DNA of 64,000 nt, from the NCBI GenBank assembly GCA_046706305.1, contig JBJKPQ010000162.1, forward strand, positions 13,381-77,380, given 5' to 3'. Positions 51,584 through 60,136 of this stretch are shown piece by piece. The notes under the pieces were generated by a model. It was not told where the DNA came from. It made no database searches and worked only from the letters and a program-made list of their open reading frames with translations. Every line of letters begins with the position of its first letter. Position 1 is the stretch's first letter. This DNA comes from Bacteroidales bacterium (lineage in GTDB: Bacteria; Bacteroidota; Bacteroidia; Bacteroidales; VadinHA17). A program made the translations under genes and the position numbers.

Positions 51584-53194
51584 ATGGCAGAATTTATTTA
51601 TGAGAAACCATTCCAGGTACAGAAGGATACTACTGTTTACAGAAAACTAACTTCTGATTATGTAAAAGTAATAGACCAGGGAGGCCGTAAGGTATTGAAA
51701 GTAGATCCGGCGGCTTTGGAAATGCTGGCTAAAGAAGCTGTTTCGGATGTTTCCTTTTTTCTGAGAACGGCCCATCTGGAAAAACTGGCAAGGATAATTG
51801 ATGATCCGGAGGCAACCGATAATGATCGTTTTGTCGCTTATATGATGTTGAAGAATACAGTTGTCTCTTCCAAAGGGGATCTGCCATGGTGCCAGGATAC
51901 CGGCACTGCGATAGTCATTGGTAAAAAAGGGGAGGATGTATGGACAGGAGGAAACGATGCAAAATCGCTTTCACGTGGGATATTCGACACTTATCGTACA
52001 AGAAACCTGAGATATTCTCAGATTGTTCCTTACACCATGTTTGAAGAAAAGAACACAGGAAGCAATCTCCCGGCGCAGATAGATATTTATTCGACTGAAG
52101 GCAGGAAATATGAATTCCTTTTTGTGACCAAGGGTGGAGGGTCTGCTAATAAGACATTCCTTTATCAGCAGACAAAGTCATTACTGAATGAAGAGTCATT
52201 AACGAAATTTGTCAAAGAAAAGATAAGGGATCTCGGGACATCTGCCTGCCCTCCATATCATCTCGCCCTGGTAATCGGAGGTACTTCAGCCGAAGCTACC
52301 CTGAAAGCCGTAAAGGAAGCATCTGCCGGTAATTATGATAATTTGCCTGTTACAGGGAACGACAGTGGAAGGGCTTTCAGGGATTTGGAATGGGAAAGTA
52401 AAATAGAGAAGATTTGCCATGAATACGGGGTTGGAGCCCAGTTCGGAGGGAAATACTTTGTTCATGATGTTCGTGTTATAAGAATGCCAAGACATGCAGC
52501 TTCATGCCCCGTTGGCCTTGGGGTTAGTTGCAGTGCCGACAGAAATATAAAAGCCTATATAGATGAGAACGGCATATTTCTCGAACAACTTGAGAAGAAT
52601 CCTGAAAAATTCATGCCTGCCAAAGCTCCTGAACTGGATAAGCCCGTTGAAATTGACCTTGACAGACCCATTAGGGAAGTCCTGTCAGATCTGACAAAAT
52701 ATCCTGTAAAAACACGTTTAAGCCTAACGGGAACTCTTGTTGTGGCACGAGATATCGCCCATGCCAGGATCAGGAAGATGCTTGAGGAGGGGAAACCTAT
52801 GCCCGATTATTTCAAGGAACATCCTATCTATTATGCAGGACCGGCCAAAACACCTGAGGGCATGCCTTCCGGTAGTTTCGGCCCCACCACTGCCGGGCGG
52901 ATGGACACTTATGTTGACCAGTTCCAGGGTATGGGCGGGTCTTTGATTATGGTTGCTAAAGGCAATCGAAGTCAACAGGTTGTGGATGCATGTAGGAAAC
53001 ACGGAGGCTTTTACCTGGGCTCAATCGGCGGTCCGGCTGCAATACTGGCAGCAGAGAATATAAAATCTGTCGAGGTGGTTGATTTTGAGGAACTGGGTAT
53101 GGAAGCTGTACGTAAAATACGCGTTGAAAATATGCCTGCCTTTATTATTACTGATGACAAGGGTAACGATTTCTTTGACGGGTATAATAAATAA
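51584..53194 (+). CDS. Class I (Fe-S dependent) fumarate hydratase
   Basis: 536 aa, fused alpha/beta type, with motifs [20 protein letters not shown] and GPTTAGRMD. Confidence 0.92.
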
Positions 53195-53334: not shown

Positions 53335-54771
53335 CTACCTTATTTCCTCAATGGTAAATATATTGTGCCGGTCAAGTTCGAGCCAGTATCTTATTGTATT
53401 CTTTCTTACAAGTTCCCAGTAAATATTGCTGTCGAGCCCGTATACATAGTTAATCTCCTTTAACTCTCCGAGTATTTTCTTTGCAAGATCAGGTCTGAGC
53501 GTCAGACGAATCTTCCTGTTCATATATGTGAACTCCACAGATGGACCAAGGGGAGGATCATTGTCCACGGTAAGCAACCCGTGGCCGGGCGTTGCCCCTG
53601 TACTTACCTGCAAACCGTCATTCATACAACTTAGGGGAGGCGTAGATCCTGCATGCGAAAGAGCCGTGAATTCATCAACACCCGTATTAAAATATTCCCT
53701 TGCCCGGATACCCATTTTAACCCCTATAATGGCAAAAACACCTAAATGCCGGTGAAGTTCATTGGCAATAACACCTGAAGTCCATTCATCCATCCCGTAC
53801 CTTTTTATAATTGATGTAACGGAAGGTTCAATATCGGTAAAGTAAAATGAGGGATCAACTGGGAATTGCCTTATTACCTGGTTTTTGGCAACTGTGAGCC
53901 CGGCGTAAATTTGTACGGCCCTGGTTCTCAGGCTATCTAAATTACCGGGGGTGCAAATTAGATTGTCTCCTGAAGGAACAGTTGTAAACAGTGAAGGAAA
54001 ATGCAGCCAGAGCACGGCCATTTCATCTCTCCCTTCCCTGGAATACTGATGGTCTGCTGCCTTATCCGACTCAAGGAATGCGGAAATTTTAGTTGCGTAA
54101 ACAGAAGGAACTTCGGCTAATTTGTCAAGAAGTAATTTGTTATAGAATACTTCATTGCCCATACCTTTAACAATCCTTACAGGTATTTTCCCTTTAAGGA
54201 CCCTTGAAGCTGATTTCCTGTCAATGTTATAGTTGAAACCATTATTATCAGCCGGATCAGTGGAACTCCAGATTATCTCTTTCACCTGTTTCCTGAAAAC
54301 AGGCAGATTATTTATTGCATTGTCAGCAGTAGACATACTGCCAAGACAAATAAAACTTATCTTCGTCGATTCATGGGTCAGCATGTCATTTATTACACTA
54401 TCGGCGTCGGGAGCATACGTATAGTCAATACCTGATTCATCTCCCCACGATGCATTTGCGGCGGTTTTAAAATCAGGAGAGGTATAGATACCTTCTTTAT
54501 AAACACCTACGGGTATACCTTCATGGTAGTAACTATTCAGCAGGCTTTTAATCTTTTTGTAGGCTGTTGAAACGTCAAGCACTCCAGGGGATACTGTGAT
54601 AGCCAGTACCCTGACATCAGGCGATGCCAGTAGCATCGAGACAGCTTTAATATCATCAATCCCTCCGTCAGTATCAATTATAACATAATGACCTGGTTTC
54701 CATGGATGTGAAAACAGCACCAGGCTGAATGACAATAAAATAAGTACCGAAGATATTTTTTTCATGAGCAT
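53335..54771 (-). CDS. Secreted fusion protein: nucleoside-hydrolase-like N-domain plus degenerate FmdE-like C-domain
   Basis: Signal peptide, then IUNH aspartate cluster IIDTDGGIDD. The C-terminal ~150 aa reads ..HRHLGVFAIIGVKMGIRA..SCMNDGLQVSTGATPGHGLL.., colinear with FmdE/FwdE motifs (HGH.CPG..G.R, C..D.IQ..TGCT.GKGNL), but with most Cys replaced. Confidence 0.6.
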   Translation of the reverse strand: MLMKKISSVLILLSFSLVLFSHPWKPGHYVIIDTDGGIDDIKAVSMLLASPDVRVLAITVSPGVLDVSTAYKKIKSLLNSYYHEGIPVGVYKEGIYTSPDFKTAANASWGDESGIDYTYAPDADSVINDMLTHESTKISFICLGSMSTADNAINNLPVFRKQVKEIIWSSTDPADNNGFNYNIDRKSASRVLKGKIPVRIVKGMGNEVFYNKLLLDKLAEVPSVYATKISAFLESDKAADHQYSREGRDEMAVLWLHFPSLFTTVPSGDNLICTPGNLDSLRTRAVQIYAGLTVAKNQVIRQFPVDPSFYFTDIEPSVTSIIKRYGMDEWTSGVIANELHRHLGVFAIIGVKMGIRAREYFNTGVDEFTALSHAGSTPPLSCMNDGLQVSTGATPGHGLLTVDNDPPLGPSVEFTYMNRKIRLTLRPDLAKKILGELKEINYVYGLDSNIYWELVRKNTIRYWLELDRHNIFTIEEIR

Positions 54772-54920: not shown

Positions 54921-56453
54921 ATGAAAAAAATTTACTTGTTATTTGTCCCCGGCATAATTGTAGGGGTTCTGCTTGTTGTTACAGTTAACAAGGCTGTAAA
55001 GATGACATCAACAAATGATTATTGTGTCTCATGTCATATTCACCCTGAGGCAGATGCATTATGGAAAAGATCGACTCACTATGATACCCGGTCAGGATAC
55101 AGGGCCAACTGTGTCGATTGTCATCTTCCACCAAAAGGTCATGGCTACCTTATGGCTAAGGTAAGGACTGGTTTTCGGGATTTGTGGAGCTACTGGACCA
55201 GGGATTCGGCGTCATTCGACTGGAAAGGCCGCAGAAGCCTGGAAGAAGCCAGGACTTATGTTTATGAAAGCACCTGTGTGGATTGTCATAAGAATCTATT
55301 CCCAGTCAGCCTTTCCAAAGAAGGTTCGGAAGCACACCTTTATTATAACCGTACCAGGGAGAAGGAAAACCTGAACTGTATAAACTGTCATCTAAATGCA
55401 GGGCACTATATAGATGGCTATACGCATGGAAGCAATAAGAACTTCGGTACAGAAGTATCATCGGGCAAGGAAATTTATACGAGTCCTTCCACGGTTAGTT
55501 CCTTCGGCAATTTTACCGAATATATACCCGGCACTTCCGTATCCTTCAGAATGATAGCTATACCCGGCGGCAAATTCAATATGGGTAGTCCCGAAAATGA
55601 ACCTTTCAGGAACGCAGACGAAGGTCCAGTACATGAAGTTGAGGTAAGTGGATTCTATATGGCTGAAACGGAGACTTCGTGGAATGAATACCTGGCCTTC
55701 TATTCACAAACGGCAGCTGAAGGACGGTCTACTGATACAGAGGGGATCAGGATCAAAGGGTCAGCTTCAACAGATGCTATTTCCGGTGCCACACCTCCTT
55801 ATGGACAGCCCGACCAGGGATGGGGCCTGGGAGAAAGGCCTGCAATATCTTTTTCATTTCATGCTGCCGAGACATACTGCAGGTGGTTATCGCGGGTAAC
55901 TGGGAAAAATTACCGTCTTCCTACAGAGGCAGAATGGGAATATGCCTGCCGGGGAGGCAGCCCGGATCCCTATTTTTTCCAGGGCGACCCGACAAAATAT
56001 CAGAGAACAGGTTTTCTTTCACGCTTTTTAAAAAATGACACTGCAATTATTAATTCCTATATCATTTACAGAGGTAACAGCCCTGGAAAAACACAGTTAC
56101 CTTCCAGGGTAAAAGCAAATCCGTTCGGTTTAAAAAACATGTCGGGCAATGTGGCTGAATTTTGTTCAGACTGGTACAGCGAAAATGCTTATGCACAGTA
56201 TACGGGTAGAGTTGTAAAAGACCCTTCCGGTCCTGCATCAGGTGAAGAACATGTTATCAGGGGTGGCTCTTTCCTGAACACGGCAGGTGCAGTCAGAAGT
56301 GCTGCCCGCGATCATACCCGGACAGATGCCTGGCTGAAGACAGATCCCCAGATGCCTAAAAGTATCTGGTGGTACTCCGATTGCTTCAATGTTGGCTTCA
56401 GGGTGGTCTGTGAATTTGATGAAAAGACGGGAGATAATAAAATACCCCGATAG
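54921..56453 (+). CDS. Membrane-anchored tetrahaem NapC/NirT-type cytochrome c fused to an FGE/SUMF1 (formylglycine-generating-enzyme-like) domain
   Basis: N-terminal TM and four CxxCH motifs (CVSCH from 55023, then CVDCH, CVDCH, CINCH) within the first ~165 aa. An FGE-sulfatase-type domain follows (..MIAIPGGKFNMGS.., YRLPTEAEWEYACRGG, GNV.EFC.DWY, IRGGSF). Confidence 0.8.
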   Translation: MKKIYLLFVPGIIVGVLLVVTVNKAVKMTSTNDYCVSCHIHPEADALWKRSTHYDTRSGYRANCVDCHLPPKGHGYLMAKVRTGFRDLWSYWTRDSASFDWKGRRSLEEARTYVYESTCVDCHKNLFPVSLSKEGSEAHLYYNRTREKENLNCINCHLNAGHYIDGYTHGSNKNFGTEVSSGKEIYTSPSTVSSFGNFTEYIPGTSVSFRMIAIPGGKFNMGSPENEPFRNADEGPVHEVEVSGFYMAETETSWNEYLAFYSQTAAEGRSTDTEGIRIKGSASTDAISGATPPYGQPDQGWGLGERPAISFSFHAAETYCRWLSRVTGKNYRLPTEAEWEYACRGGSPDPYFFQGDPTKYQRTGFLSRFLKNDTAIINSYIIYRGNSPGKTQLPSRVKANPFGLKNMSGNVAEFCSDWYSENAYAQYTGRVVKDPSGPASGEEHVIRGGSFLNTAGAVRSAARDHTRTDAWLKTDPQMPKSIWWYSDCFNVGFRVVCEFDEKTGDNKIPR

Positions 56454-56566: not shown

Positions 56567-57925
56567 ATGAAAAAAACAAGTATTTCCCGGCGTAACTTTC
56601 TTGGTAAGGCTGCGGCGGCGGGGGTGGCTGGTATTGTAGCTCCCACAATTCTAACCAGTTGCAACCGTGAATCAAAGAAAACAGTGGCAGTTCCCGTGAT
56701 GCTCGACCAGGCTCCGGATGGCCCGGTTCTGAAAGCCGGAGTAATCGGATGTGGTGGTCGTGGTACCGGTGCCGCTATTAATTTCCTGAGTGCAGGGCCA
56801 AATCTGCAGATTACGGCTCTCGGCGATACATTCCAGGATCGTATAGATTCATGCCGCAGTGAAATTCTTAAACAAAAGGGGCAGGAAGTACCTGTTGAAA
56901 ACTGTTTTGTAGGTTTTGACGCCTACCAGAAGGTGATAGATTCCGGTGTCGATATTATAATAACTGCAACCCCTCCTTTCTTTCGTCCCCTGATACTGGA
57001 AGCAGCAATACAGGCTAAAAAACATGTTTTTGCTGAAAAACCTGTTGCTGTAGATCCGGAAGGAGCCAGGTCGATTATGGCAACAGCACAAAAGGCAAAA
57101 GGGATGGATCTTTGTATAGTGACCGGGACACAACGTCGCCATCAACGTGACTATATTGCAGCATGGCAACAGGTAGCTGAAGGTGCAGTAGGAGAAATAA
57201 CGGGTGGTAATGTTTACTGGAATGGGGGCAAGCTGTGGCACCGCGATCCAAACCCGAAATGGAGCGAAATGGAATACATGATACGCAACTGGGTTAACTG
57301 GACATGGCTTTCAGGCGACCATATTGTGGAACAACATGTGCATAATATTGATGTTATGAACTGGTTCACAGGTTCTCATCCTGTCAGTGCTCTGGGATTC
57401 GGATCAAGACTTCGCAGGGTGACAGGTGATCAATATGATAATTTCAGCGTCGATTTTGTTTTTGATAATGGTATTCATTTTCACAGTATGTGCCGGCAAA
57501 TTGACGGGTGTACAAATAATGTATCAGAACATATCCAGGGTACAAAAGGATCATCTGACTGCCGAAGCAATATTGTAGACCTGGCTGGGAATGTTCTGTG
57601 GAAATATGATTATCCAAAGGACAAAGACGGTAATCCAACAAACCAGGTCAGCGTTGATCCTTATGTCCAGGAGCATATCGACCTGGTTACTGCTATACGT
57701 ACCGGTAAACCTGTCAATGAAGCTGAAGCCACTGCAATTTCTACCCTGGTCGCCATTATGGGACGTATTTCAGCTTATACAGGTAAGGAAACAACATGGG
57801 ATGAAATGATGAATTCAGATCTTAAGCTTGGTCCGAAAGTATTTGACTGGGGTCCGGTAGATATAGATAAGTCAGTACCACTGCCGGGAGTAGCTTATAT
57901 ACCTGAAACAACACAGGGTTCATAA
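56567..57925 (+). CDS. Tat-exported Gfo/Idh/MocA-family oxidoreductase
   Basis: Twin-arginine signal SRRNFLGKAAAAGVAG, Rossmann GVIGCGGRGTGAA and EKP motif (FAEKPVA). Confidence 0.85.
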   Translation: MKKTSISRRNFLGKAAAAGVAGIVAPTILTSCNRESKKTVAVPVMLDQAPDGPVLKAGVIGCGGRGTGAAINFLSAGPNLQITALGDTFQDRIDSCRSEILKQKGQEVPVENCFVGFDAYQKVIDSGVDIIITATPPFFRPLILEAAIQAKKHVFAEKPVAVDPEGARSIMATAQKAKGMDLCIVTGTQRRHQRDYIAAWQQVAEGAVGEITGGNVYWNGGKLWHRDPNPKWSEMEYMIRNWVNWTWLSGDHIVEQHVHNIDVMNWFTGSHPVSALGFGSRLRRVTGDQYDNFSVDFVFDNGIHFHSMCRQIDGCTNNVSEHIQGTKGSSDCRSNIVDLAGNVLWKYDYPKDKDGNPTNQVSVDPYVQEHIDLVTAIRTGKPVNEAEATAISTLVAIMGRISAYTGKETTWDEMMNSDLKLGPKVFDWGPVDIDKSVPLPGVAYIPETTQGS

Positions 57926-57946: not shown

Positions 57947-58891
57947 ATGGAATTTAACAGACGGAAATTCATAAAAAAAGCAGCAACAACAGGAGCAGCC
58001 TTGATGGCAGCTCCTGCCCTTCTCTCTTCTGCAAATGGTGTAACCTCTCCTGGAAAAATGGATGAAGGTGAGCCCTTCAAACTTAAATATGCGCCTTCAT
58101 TTGGGATGTTTAATGAACATGCAGGAAAGGATCCTGTTGACAATATCAGGTTCTGTTATGATACAGGGTTCAGGGCTATGTTCGATAATGGGCTGAAAGA
58201 CAGGCCTGTGGAAGAACAGGAGAAAATAGCCAATGAGATTAGCAGCCGTGGAATGGAACTGGGCCCCTTTGTGCTGTATGCCGATTTCGGTGTTACATCC
58301 TTCGTTCTTAACAAACCGGATATCCGTGATATGCTTATCAATAAAATGAAGGAAGGTGTTGAAGTGGCAAAAAGGACTGGTGTTAAATGGGCTCTTGTGG
58401 TCCCGGGAAGATACGATGAAAGATTACATCACGATTACCAGACAGCCAATGTAATTGATAACCTTAGGTACTGCTGTGATATTACAGGTCCGGCAGGCCT
58501 TACAATTGTCCTGGAACCTCTTAATACAATCCACGATCATCCTGGTTTATTCCTTAACGGAATACCCCAGGCATATGAAATATGCCGCGCAGTAAACAAC
58601 CCTTATTGTAAGATTGTGGACGATATTTACCACCAGCAGATCACCGAGGGTAATCTTATTCCTAATATTGAAGCAGCCTGGTCGGAAATAGCTGCTTTTC
58701 ACCTTGGTGATAACCCCGGTCGTAACGAACCCACCACGGGTGAGATAAATTATAAAAACATATTTAAATATCTCTACAATCGCAACTATAATGGTGTACT
58801 GTGTATGGAACATGGTATGAGCCAAAGATCGAAGGAAGGAGAAGAGAGAGTTATACAGGCATACAGGACATGTGATGATTTTGAAGTTTAA
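57947..58891 (+). CDS. Tat-exported xylose-isomerase-like TIM-barrel protein (sugar phosphate isomerase/epimerase or hydroxypyruvate isomerase family)
   Basis: Twin-arginine signal NRRKFIKKAATTGAALMAAPAL. ~270-aa barrel with LEPLN and HLGD-type metal-site motifs. Confidence 0.75.
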   Translation: MEFNRRKFIKKAATTGAALMAAPALLSSANGVTSPGKMDEGEPFKLKYAPSFGMFNEHAGKDPVDNIRFCYDTGFRAMFDNGLKDRPVEEQEKIANEISSRGMELGPFVLYADFGVTSFVLNKPDIRDMLINKMKEGVEVAKRTGVKWALVVPGRYDERLHHDYQTANVIDNLRYCCDITGPAGLTIVLEPLNTIHDHPGLFLNGIPQAYEICRAVNNPYCKIVDDIYHQQITEGNLIPNIEAAWSEIAAFHLGDNPGRNEPTTGEINYKNIFKYLYNRNYNGVLCMEHGMSQRSKEGEERVIQAYRTCDDFEV

Positions 58892-59023: not shown

Positions 59024-60136
59024 ATGAAAAAGTTAAATCTGTTATTGCCTGTGTTCTTTTTATTCATGATGCTGATGACTGCATGTAACTCTCCTTCAAT
59101 AAGACTCTTTGCCGGAAGATATAATGATAAAGGAGGTAAGGGCCTGTACCTGTACGATGTAAACCTGGACAGAGGAACTTTCAAGCCTGTCACCGAAGCT
59201 GATGCAGGACCGGATCCTTCCTATTTTTGTATATCTAAAAAGACCGGTTATATCTATGCTGCCAACGAAGTGATGGATTTTCAGGGTGCCAAAGCGGGTG
59301 GAGTGACGGCATTAAGTTATGACTCCAAGACAGGTAAAATTGAAAAGCTAAAGGATCTTGTTGTACCTTACGGAGGGCCTTGCTTCATCTCCTTATCACC
59401 CAATGATGATTTCCTTTTGATGGCCAACTATTCCAGCAGCTCGGTGTCTGTTGTGAAGCTTGATGATAAGGGTCTGCCGGAAGCTGTTACTGATACAATT
59501 CTTTTCAATGACAGGGAAGGAAAGGTATCTCATCCTCATATGATGATGTTCGGACCCGATGGTGAACATGTATATCTTACCGACCTGGGTTACGACAGGG
59601 TAGTGGTTTACGATTTTGATAATATCAACGGCAGGCTACTGCAACTTGATAATGGTATTGTGGATTTTCCCGAAGGAACGGGTCCTAGGCATTTTACATT
59701 TAGCCGTGACGGAAGTAAGATGTATGTTATTTGCGAGCTCAATTCAACAATATCCGTTCTCGATGTCGACGAGGGTGGCAGACTTAGTATTATTCAGACT
59801 CTTTCTACAATTACAGATGATTTCAAGGGTAAAAGTTTTTGTGCGGATGTTCATTTTGGTAATAGCGATCAGTATCTGTATGGTTCCAACAGGGGTGAGA
59901 ATGATATAATTACATTTAAGGTTGGAGAAGACGGCAAGCTTGAAATTATTGGCAGAACTCCCTGTGGAGGCGACTGGCCCAGGAATTTTGTTATTGATCC
60001 TTCGGGGAAATTTATTCTCGTCGGAAATCAGCGTTCAGGAAATATCTCCCTTCTTAAAATTGATGAAAAAACCGGAATACCTGCGGAAACAGGGAAAGGC
60101 TGCAAAATAGTTACTCCTGCATGCCTTAAATTCTAG
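59024..60136 (+). CDS. Lipoprotein, 7-bladed beta-propeller lactonase family (6-phosphogluconolactonase-like)
   Basis: Lipobox FFLFMMLMTAC. Repeated propeller blades (..GPRHFTFSRDGSKMYVICELNSTISV.., ..PRNFVIDPSGKFILVGNQRS..). Confidence 0.8.
   Translation: MKKLNLLLPVFFLFMMLMTACNSPSIRLFAGRYNDKGGKGLYLYDVNLDRGTFKPVTEADAGPDPSYFCISKKTGYIYAANEVMDFQGAKAGGVTALSYDSKTGKIEKLKDLVVPYGGPCFISLSPNDDFLLMANYSSSSVSVVKLDDKGLPEAVTDTILFNDREGKVSHPHMMMFGPDGEHVYLTDLGYDRVVVYDFDNINGRLLQLDNGIVDFPEGTGPRHFTFSRDGSKMYVICELNSTISVLDVDEGGRLSIIQTLSTITDDFKGKSFCADVHFGNSDQYLYGSNRGENDIITFKVGEDGKLEIIGRTPCGGDWPRNFVIDPSGKFILVGNQRSGNISLLKIDEKTGIPAETGKGCKIVTPACLKF

Follow-up and report, generated by a model that had tools for sequence, protein, structure and literature searches.

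The 64,000-nucleotide window analysed here (contig JBJKPQ010000162.1 of the Bacteroidales bacterium assembly GCA_046706305.1), meaning the whole stretch of DNA under study, carries on its forward strand a gene of 510 codons without internal stops (54921..56453), which encodes a membrane-anchored tetrahaem cytochrome joined in a single polypeptide to a cysteine-less domain with the fold of formylglycine-generating enzymes (FGEs). The most likely role of this fused protein is to provide a docking site for the exported sugar dehydrogenase of the neighbouring gene and to deliver the electrons of that enzyme to respiration, probably by way of a covalently bound flavin. Strong hydrophobicity is confined to residues 4-22 (54930..54986, forward strand), a stretch that contains the hydrophobicity maximum, falls within a helix that AlphaFold2 places over residues 2-29, and is predicted to be the N-terminal transmembrane anchor. 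It is followed by a NapC/NirT-type tetrahaem domain (54987..55415, forward strand) that matches Pfam Cytochrom_NNT over residues 3-163 (PF03264, E 4.7e-29, 101.8 bits against a cutoff of 24.1) and near the full length of the model (positions 7-170 of 174), with CxxCH motifs at residues 35, 64, 119, and 153 (55023-55037, 55110-55124, 55275-55289, and 55377-55391, forward strand). Residues K80 and D87 align with K82 and D89 of NrfH, which we take to be quinol-site residues, and both are the majority residues in the family alignment, while H41 occupies the place of the NrfH haem-1 ligand M49. A first-pass annotation of the same DNA had proposed an N-terminal transmembrane helix with four CxxCH motifs in about 165 residues and a NapC/NirT-like character for this module, and the hydrophobicity profile, the motif scan, the above-cutoff PF03264 match, and the K80/D87 correspondence all bear this out. 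The equivalog models of NCBIfam all score far under their cutoffs (NrfH, 73.8 vs 134; NapC/NirT, 59.7 vs 310; TorC, 77.8 and 77 vs 455 and 478), and by these scores the cytochrome module does not appear to be an ortholog of any named NapC, NrfH, or TorC.

An interdomain linker that is variable in the alignment (residues 166-197; 55416..55511, forward strand), with a predicted local distance difference test (pLDDT) score below 50 at residues 169-182, leads into the FGE-fold domain, which lacks the catalytic cysteine pair (residues 198-500; 55512..56420, forward strand). This domain is recognized by Pfam FGE-sulfatase (PF03781, residues 211-467, E 2e-42, 146 bits) and by Foldseek, where its best match is PvdO (template modelling (TM) score 0.77) and solved FGEs follow at TM scores of ∼0.65 with a probability of 1.00. 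The hallmarks that had been named for it (PGGKFNMGS, RLPTEAEWEYACRGG, and IRGGSF) are all found in the translation, and the FGE-fold core, whose absence had been named as grounds for dropping the assignment, is seen both in the AlphaFold monomer model (pLDDT 81.7) and in the Foldseek matches. Two further features of the domain set it apart, namely DAISGAT (D285-T291; 55773..55793, forward strand), an exact match to the flavinylation motif of ApbE with T291 as the predicted site of flavin mononucleotide (FMN) attachment, and a family-specific DPQxPKSxWW motif (residues 475-484; 56343..56372, forward strand), which is near-invariant in the family alignment and not present in generic FGE domains. 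The DAISGAT motif and the operon partner had both been overlooked in the first reading.

The fused gene is a real, widespread, uncharacterised membrane protein gene. All of the best 120 protein clusters (68-86% identity, 503-563 amino acids) carry both domains and four CxxCH motifs, the full-length fused form is encoded at no fewer than 80 genome loci (species-level genomes, mostly metagenome-assembled genomes (MAGs) of Bacteroidales), and a second fused copy with 57% identity and a retained DAISGAT lies in the same genome (C188:26484-28019, reverse strand; locus L081, 7985-9520). Because at least 120 clusters, at least 80 loci, and the paralog keep an intact frame, a frameshift artefact is excluded, and the single-polypeptide fusion proposed in the first-pass annotation stands. 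Behind the paralog come a Gfo/Idh/MocA gene of its own and a ThuA-family gene (PF06283), and the genome of the window therefore holds two cytochrome-FGE-like modules. Among 401 sampled genomes of the phylum the fused form occurs in three, including the window's own, and dozens of stand-alone orthologs of the C-terminal domain (310-370 amino acids) were found in the same sample; in a tree of the family the NapC-fused forms make up one clade (Shimodaira–Hasegawa-like approximate likelihood ratio test support 100). A search of a representative library added only a few fused clusters, and its distant matches are dominated by giant proteins (1,000-4,400 amino acids, up to 22 FGE-domain repeats), which appear unrelated to the cytochrome-FGE-like module. 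Fused forms outside Bacteroidota were seen in an Acidobacteriota MAG (L139:6458-7939, forward strand) and in an unclassified MAG (L143:426-1838, forward strand), the former copy having three CxxCH motifs only and an R in place of the first D of the flavinylation motif.

Loss of the FGE active site extends across the family. Alignments with solved FGEs stop at RGGSFLN453, where FGEs carry GGSxLC, and none of the 48 family members has the copper-binding cysteine pair at the position after RGGS. The genome encodes ∼6 full-length sulfatases, all on contigs other than those of the two fused copies (C162 and C188), no sulfatase gene was found among the annotated neighbours, and no copper enzyme is linked to the fused gene. 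With neither copper-binding cysteine present and no linkage to a sulfatase gene, the domain is not a formylglycine-generating enzyme, and the chemistry that had been suggested for it has to be given up. Sulfatase maturation was rejected as a role on the same two grounds, and three other assignments were rejected on model scores and a differing gene context, namely orthology to PvdO (NCBIfam 88.1 vs a cutoff of 500), a PorK/GldK-type ring protein of the type IX secretion system (GldK model 99.6 vs 350), and an EgtB/OvoA sulfoxide synthase (models under cutoff); the SenA, EgtB, and OvoA models of NCBIfam all score far under their cutoffs. The C-terminal domain gives the impression of an adaptor that docks a partner and carries a flavin, and not of a maturase. 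Of the earlier proposal of a quinone-coupled oxidation independent of O2, the general idea fits these observations, while the maturase or FGE chemistry attached to it does not, given the missing copper cysteines.

The gene that accompanies the module encodes a Gfo/Idh/MocA oxidoreductase of 452 amino acids (56567..57925, forward strand; PF01408/PF22725) with a twin-arginine translocation (Tat) signal, SRRNFLGKAAAAG. It begins 113 nucleotides 3' of the fused gene on the same strand, and a simple scan found no terminator-like site in this gap; the few such sites inside open reading frames (ORFs) elsewhere are as many as expected by chance, and the result carries little weight in either direction. 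Of 20 loci from the phylum-wide sample, 18 have a dehydrogenase homolog (39-62% identity) as the next gene after the FGE-like one. When the phylum sample was combined with a second fetch seeded by stand-alone forms, 40 of 47 orthologous loci had a homolog adjoining the FGE-like gene, whether or not this gene was fused (at position +1, and once at -1). These loci span at least six phyla (Bacteroidota, Planctomycetota, Verrucomicrobiota, Acidobacteriota, Gemmatimonadota, KSB1, and others), and none of the 52 generic FGE-domain ORFs from the same fetch has such a neighbour. Downstream of the dehydrogenase gene lie genes for a Tat-exported xylose-isomerase-like TIM-barrel protein of 314 amino acids (57947..58891, forward strand; PF01261; Tat signal NRRKFIKKAATTGAA), homologs of which occur near the module in many loci, and for a seven-bladed beta-propeller lactonase of 370 amino acids (59024..60136, forward strand; PF10282, E 1e-90), which is probably a lipoprotein and whose gene is syntenic in close relatives. 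The orthologous loci also hold 3-keto-disaccharide hydrolases (DUF1080), xylose-isomerase-like TIM barrels, SusC/SusD, and glycosidases with rhamnosidase and fucosidase domains, and with the ThuA gene of the paralog locus this gene content indicates a periplasmic pathway of the 3-keto-glycoside type, as for BT2156-BT2160 and ThuAB. The partner dehydrogenase itself scores 24.6 bits with the BT_2158-family model NF058561, against a cutoff of 750.

A model of the complex between dehydrogenase residues 40-452 and FGE-like residues 186-510, with NAD and FMN included, supports binding of the dehydrogenase without demonstrating it. Over three runs the interaction prediction score from aligned errors (ipSAE) came to 0.75, 0.00, and 0.81 (median 0.75), and none of the three controls exceeded 0.00. 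When the method was calibrated, 58 of 80 complexes of solved structure reached this mark, as did 2 of 110 pairs that were mismatched, counts that hold only approximately here because custom alignments were used and ligands were present. The partners are modelled at a pLDDT of at least 80, and contacts agree between runs at 28% or more. On the FGE-like side the predicted interface comprises the loop 291-300, residues 452-457 of the former FGE active site, and residues 473-479 of the DPQ motif, and on the dehydrogenase side the glycine-rich NAD-binding Rossmann loop 63-72 together with residues 218-227, 313-319, and 354-366; the DAISGAT loop and residues 473-479 are both placed against the NAD-binding loop. 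No complex similar by sequence is present in the PDB, and memory of the predictor is therefore an unlikely source of the score.

The case for a flavin centres on the loop that carries DAISGAT. ApbE attaches flavin at the motif D-x-x-[ST]-G-A-[ST] (PMC12052999), which residues 285-291 match exactly, downstream of the single N-terminal transmembrane helix. Of 121 close homologs, 120 retain the motif as DA[IV][ST]GAT, and so does the paralog. Across the family the loop reads D-A-[IV]-[ST]-[GR]-[AP]-[ST]-x-P-[YFW], with the closing S/T in all 48 members and, at position -2, G in every NapC-fused member and R in most stand-alone members. Pfam gives no FMN_bind (PF04205) match in the fused protein, and the motif sits in the FGE-fold domain; the other proteins of the genome with the strict motif are RnfD, NqrB, and one FMN_bind protein only. 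Among loci without the NapC fusion, ApbE is encoded within four genes of the FGE-like gene in 19 of 35, compared with 0 of 52 generic FGE ORFs. This adjacency is scattered over the tree (13 state changes), 13 of the ApbE calls are confirmed by Pfam (E ≤ 1e-61), and no other ORF within five genes of the ApbE-linked loci contains the strict seven-residue motif. No local ApbE is found at the NapC-fused loci, and the single ApbE of the present genome (C27:9247-10083) lies ∼3 kb from the NqrB gene. In a Phycisphaerales MAG, an ORF of 1178 amino acids (L135:3664-7200, reverse strand) that adjoins the FGE-like/dehydrogenase pair combines ApbE, 3-keto-disaccharide hydrolase, and alpha-L-fucosidase domains, and may be either a genuine fusion or the result of read-through in the ORF call.

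Links to electron transfer recur outside the NapC-fused clade. In Acidobacteriota and Verrucomicrobiota, orthologs of the FGE-like domain occur in separate fusions with mono- or di-haem domains of the PSCyt1 or cbb3 type, and a Tll0287-like haem protein or YceI adjoins the FGE-like gene in other loci. At four loci (L084, L089, L091, and L109) a YceI-like protein (PF04264, an isoprenoid/quinone-binding family) is encoded directly beside a stand-alone FGE-like gene, and three of these (L084, L089, and L109) have no adjacent dehydrogenase gene and have large two-haem ORFs close by. The genome of the window encodes the b558 subunit of fumarate reductase and is rich in multihaem cytochromes (C134:4723-7449, C33:8687-10669, and others on C30, C82, C84, and C43), including a cytochrome b/c fusion of 660 amino acids and a protein of 908 amino acids that has 11 CxxCH motifs besides a cytochrome b domain, a set that suggests a versatile respiratory chain, unusual for Bacteroidales.

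Alongside what is observed directly (the domain architecture, the cysteine loss, the gene pairing, the proximity of ApbE genes at related loci, the fusions to other cytochrome types, and the exact match to the ApbE motif), we infer flavinylation, the direction of electron flow, and the class of substrate, and take binding from the model. In the reading that we favour, with a confidence slightly above even, the fused protein acts in the membrane as the electron-transfer subunit of a haem-flavin wire that would connect a periplasmic sugar dehydrogenase to the quinone pool. The N-terminal helix would serve as the inner-membrane anchor, the four-haem domain would exchange electrons with the quinone pool (menaquinone being expected in Bacteroidales), and the FGE-fold domain, having lost catalysis, would dock the Tat-exported, NAD(P)-carrying Gfo/Idh/MocA dehydrogenase encoded downstream. 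The surface loop DAISGAT would probably be flavinylated at T291 by the single ApbE of the genome, and the FMN would then accept hydride, with its two electrons, from the bound NAD(P)H and pass the electrons singly to the haems. Electrons would thus pass from the sugar through bound NAD(P)H, FMN-T291, the four haems, and quinone to fumarate reductase or other acceptors, with fumarate reductase and the numerous multihaem proteins of the genome as possible downstream sinks; the substrate may be a sugar, probably one of a glycoside or 3-keto-glycoside pathway.

A number of results weigh against this haem-flavin route. With regard to docking, one complex run of the three gave an ipSAE of 0.00, and the dehydrogenase gene is non-adjacent in about one third of close relatives. 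Of five genomes where SusC/SusD genes follow the fused gene, three carry a dehydrogenase gene ∼9-20 kb downstream on the same strand, a fourth, for which the identity of the contig is unconfirmed, probably does so too, and the fifth has only a stop-containing fragment. With regard to the quinone, the MenA model TIGR00751 found no match in the assembly, which is 94% complete and encodes three UbiA-family prenyltransferases. With regard to the flavin, the canonical G-A is limited to part of the fused clade and the remaining fused members have G-P, and most stand-alone orthologs, those adjacent to ApbE included, have R-P ([ST]RP[ST]), which is no documented ApbE motif. The DAISGAT loop has a low pLDDT in the monomer model, and the apparent rule that the canonical motif occurs where there is no dedicated ApbE comes from only two to three independent contrasts in the tree. 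The strict motif is also as frequent in the genome as expected by chance (5 observed vs 5.2 by shuffling; per-protein chance 0.26%), and the argument for flavin therefore leans on conservation of the motif, not on its mere occurrence. The evidence is computational throughout, each mechanistic step being derived from sequences or models. The main rival, in which the protein would dock the dehydrogenase or a different periplasmic partner and exchange electrons directly between its haems and the cofactor of that partner with no flavin, the loop being structural or ligand-binding and the nearby ApbE serving another target or flavin trafficking, gains from the [ST]RP[ST] variant of most orthologs, the chance-level motif count, and the low confidence of the loop. 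We nevertheless judge it unlikely, since ApbE recurs beside the module across phyla with no other strict-motif target nearby, S or T always closes the motif, and the hydride of NAD(P)H normally needs a flavin or similar mediator to reduce one-electron haems.

Electron flow in the opposite direction, with the cytochrome oxidising menaquinol in the manner of NapC and NrfH and the partner acting as a reductase of 3-keto sugars or another periplasmic acceptor, would agree with the quinol dehydrogenase role of most characterised NapC/NirT members and with the reduction step that exists in 3-keto-glycoside pathways (PMC8121099). This possibility is improbable in our view, given that fumarate reductase and many multihaem proteins are available as sinks and that the reverse reaction faces an energetic obstacle. 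Transfer from menaquinol to bound NAD(P)+ would be thermodynamically uphill, because the potential of NAD(P)+ is ∼ -320 mV and that of menaquinol ∼ -74 mV, and NapC/NirT members that work toward quinone exist, cytochrome cM552 being a precedent. Fainter still is the prospect that the FGE-like domain is itself catalytic, as an anaerobic quinone-coupled maturase or oxidase of a protein or small molecule (for sulfatase-type cysteine oxidation or a PvdO-like dehydrogenation) with the haems as its sink. The FGE fold and the top structural match lend it some substance, PvdO being an FGE-like protein without the cysteines that goes under the name dihydropyoverdine dehydrogenase in NCBIfam, but the copper cysteines are missing across the family, the sulfatase genes are on other contigs, the PvdO and GldK/PorK models score far under their cutoffs, the partner conserved beside it is a dehydrogenase, and the region of the lost active site sits in the predicted interface. 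That the fusion is an artefactual or non-functional join of two genes has practically no probability left, as the intact frame with four haem motifs in clusters, loci, and paralog and the single well-supported clade already refute it and nothing was found in its favour.

The fused protein combines features of three known kinds of system, namely NapC/NirT cytochromes that carry an additional domain, extracytosolic electron carriers that are flavinylated, and periplasmic sugar dehydrogenases linked to the membrane. With the NapC/NirT family (NrfH, CymA, NapC, TorC, and cytochrome cM552) it has in common the N-terminal transmembrane anchor and four CxxCH motifs in ∼165 residues, and TorC likewise has an additional C-terminal domain, which here is an FGE fold and not a haem domain; the partners of family members are nitrate, nitrite, or trimethylamine N-oxide reductases, whereas here the partner is a Gfo/Idh/MocA dehydrogenase, and the haem-1 ligand M49 of NrfH is replaced by H41. 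The ApbE-flavinylated carriers (NqrB/C, RnfD/G, NosR, PplA, DUF2271, and DUF3570; Meheust et al. 2021, PMC8238504) resemble the fused protein in their motif, their extracytosolic domain, and their tie to a membrane electron-transfer module, with ApbE accompanying the orthologs of the latter, but its carrier fold is FGE/C-type-lectin-like and neither FMN_bind nor another documented carrier domain, and many of the present orthologs carry the undocumented R-P or G-P variant. FGE (SUMF1) has the fold and hallmarks in common with the fused protein, which is without the copper site or a sulfatase link, and PvdO, SUMF2/pFGE, and PorK/GldK also have no catalytic cysteines; among these relatives, DPQxPKSxWW, the flavinylation-type loop, the cytochrome fusion, and the dehydrogenase pairing are peculiar to the present family. 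BT2158 of Bacteroides thetaiotaomicron and ThuB are Tat-exported Gfo/Idh/MocA enzymes like the partner, and ThuA, DUF1080 proteins, and TIM barrels occur in the loci. For BT2158, an unidentified sugar has been proposed as the electron acceptor (PMC8121099). LacABC is FAD-dependent and has its own cytochrome c subunit, while the present loci encode a dedicated haem, and probably flavin, subunit.

Neither the fusion of an FGE-like domain to NapC nor the pairing of an FGE-like protein with Gfo/Idh/MocA and ApbE is described in the flavinylation, 3-keto-glycoside, GapMind, and NapC-SUMF1 literature searched, and FGE, sulfatase, and Gfo are not mentioned in the flavinylation surveys and review searched. 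The earlier statement that no characterised member was known agrees with this, as none surfaced in the literature searched. The question addressed is how trapped NAD(P) in exported Gfo/Idh/MocA enzymes is re-oxidised in the periplasm. If the favoured haem-flavin route is true, periplasmic glycan oxidation would be energy-conserving in anaerobic Bacteroidales, a new fold would be added to the flavinylated proteins, and the sequence specificity of ApbE would possibly be wider. We put forward tentatively, at a little less than even chances, the broader proposal that the FGE fold forms an unrecognised class of ApbE-flavinylated electron-transfer domain, which in six phyla or more, fused to c-type cytochromes or working with them, would convert Tat-exported, NAD(P)-bound Gfo/Idh/MocA enzymes into respiratory sugar:quinone or sugar:cytochrome c oxidoreductases. 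A dedicated ApbE would flavinylate many of these domains at the non-canonical site [ST]-R-P-[ST], and the proposal would explain where periplasmic Gfo-type glycoside dehydrogenases send their electrons. Hundreds of genes now bear wrong names, namely 'formylglycine-generating enzyme', 'SUMF1/EgtB/PvdO family nonheme iron enzyme', or 'sulfatase modifying factor 1', and database names such as the first two are misleading for members of the family.

Two genes upstream of the fused gene show synteny of their own. Divergent from it lies an ORF of 478 amino acids (53335-54771, reverse strand) that joins an inosine-uridine nucleoside hydrolase domain (PF01156) to FmdE (PF02663), an unusual pairing that is syntenic in 51 of 81 loci of close relatives. 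Two genes upstream, a class I (Fe-S) fumarate hydratase gene (51584-53194, forward strand) keeps synteny with the fused gene in 64 of the 81 loci, which may be merely inherited.

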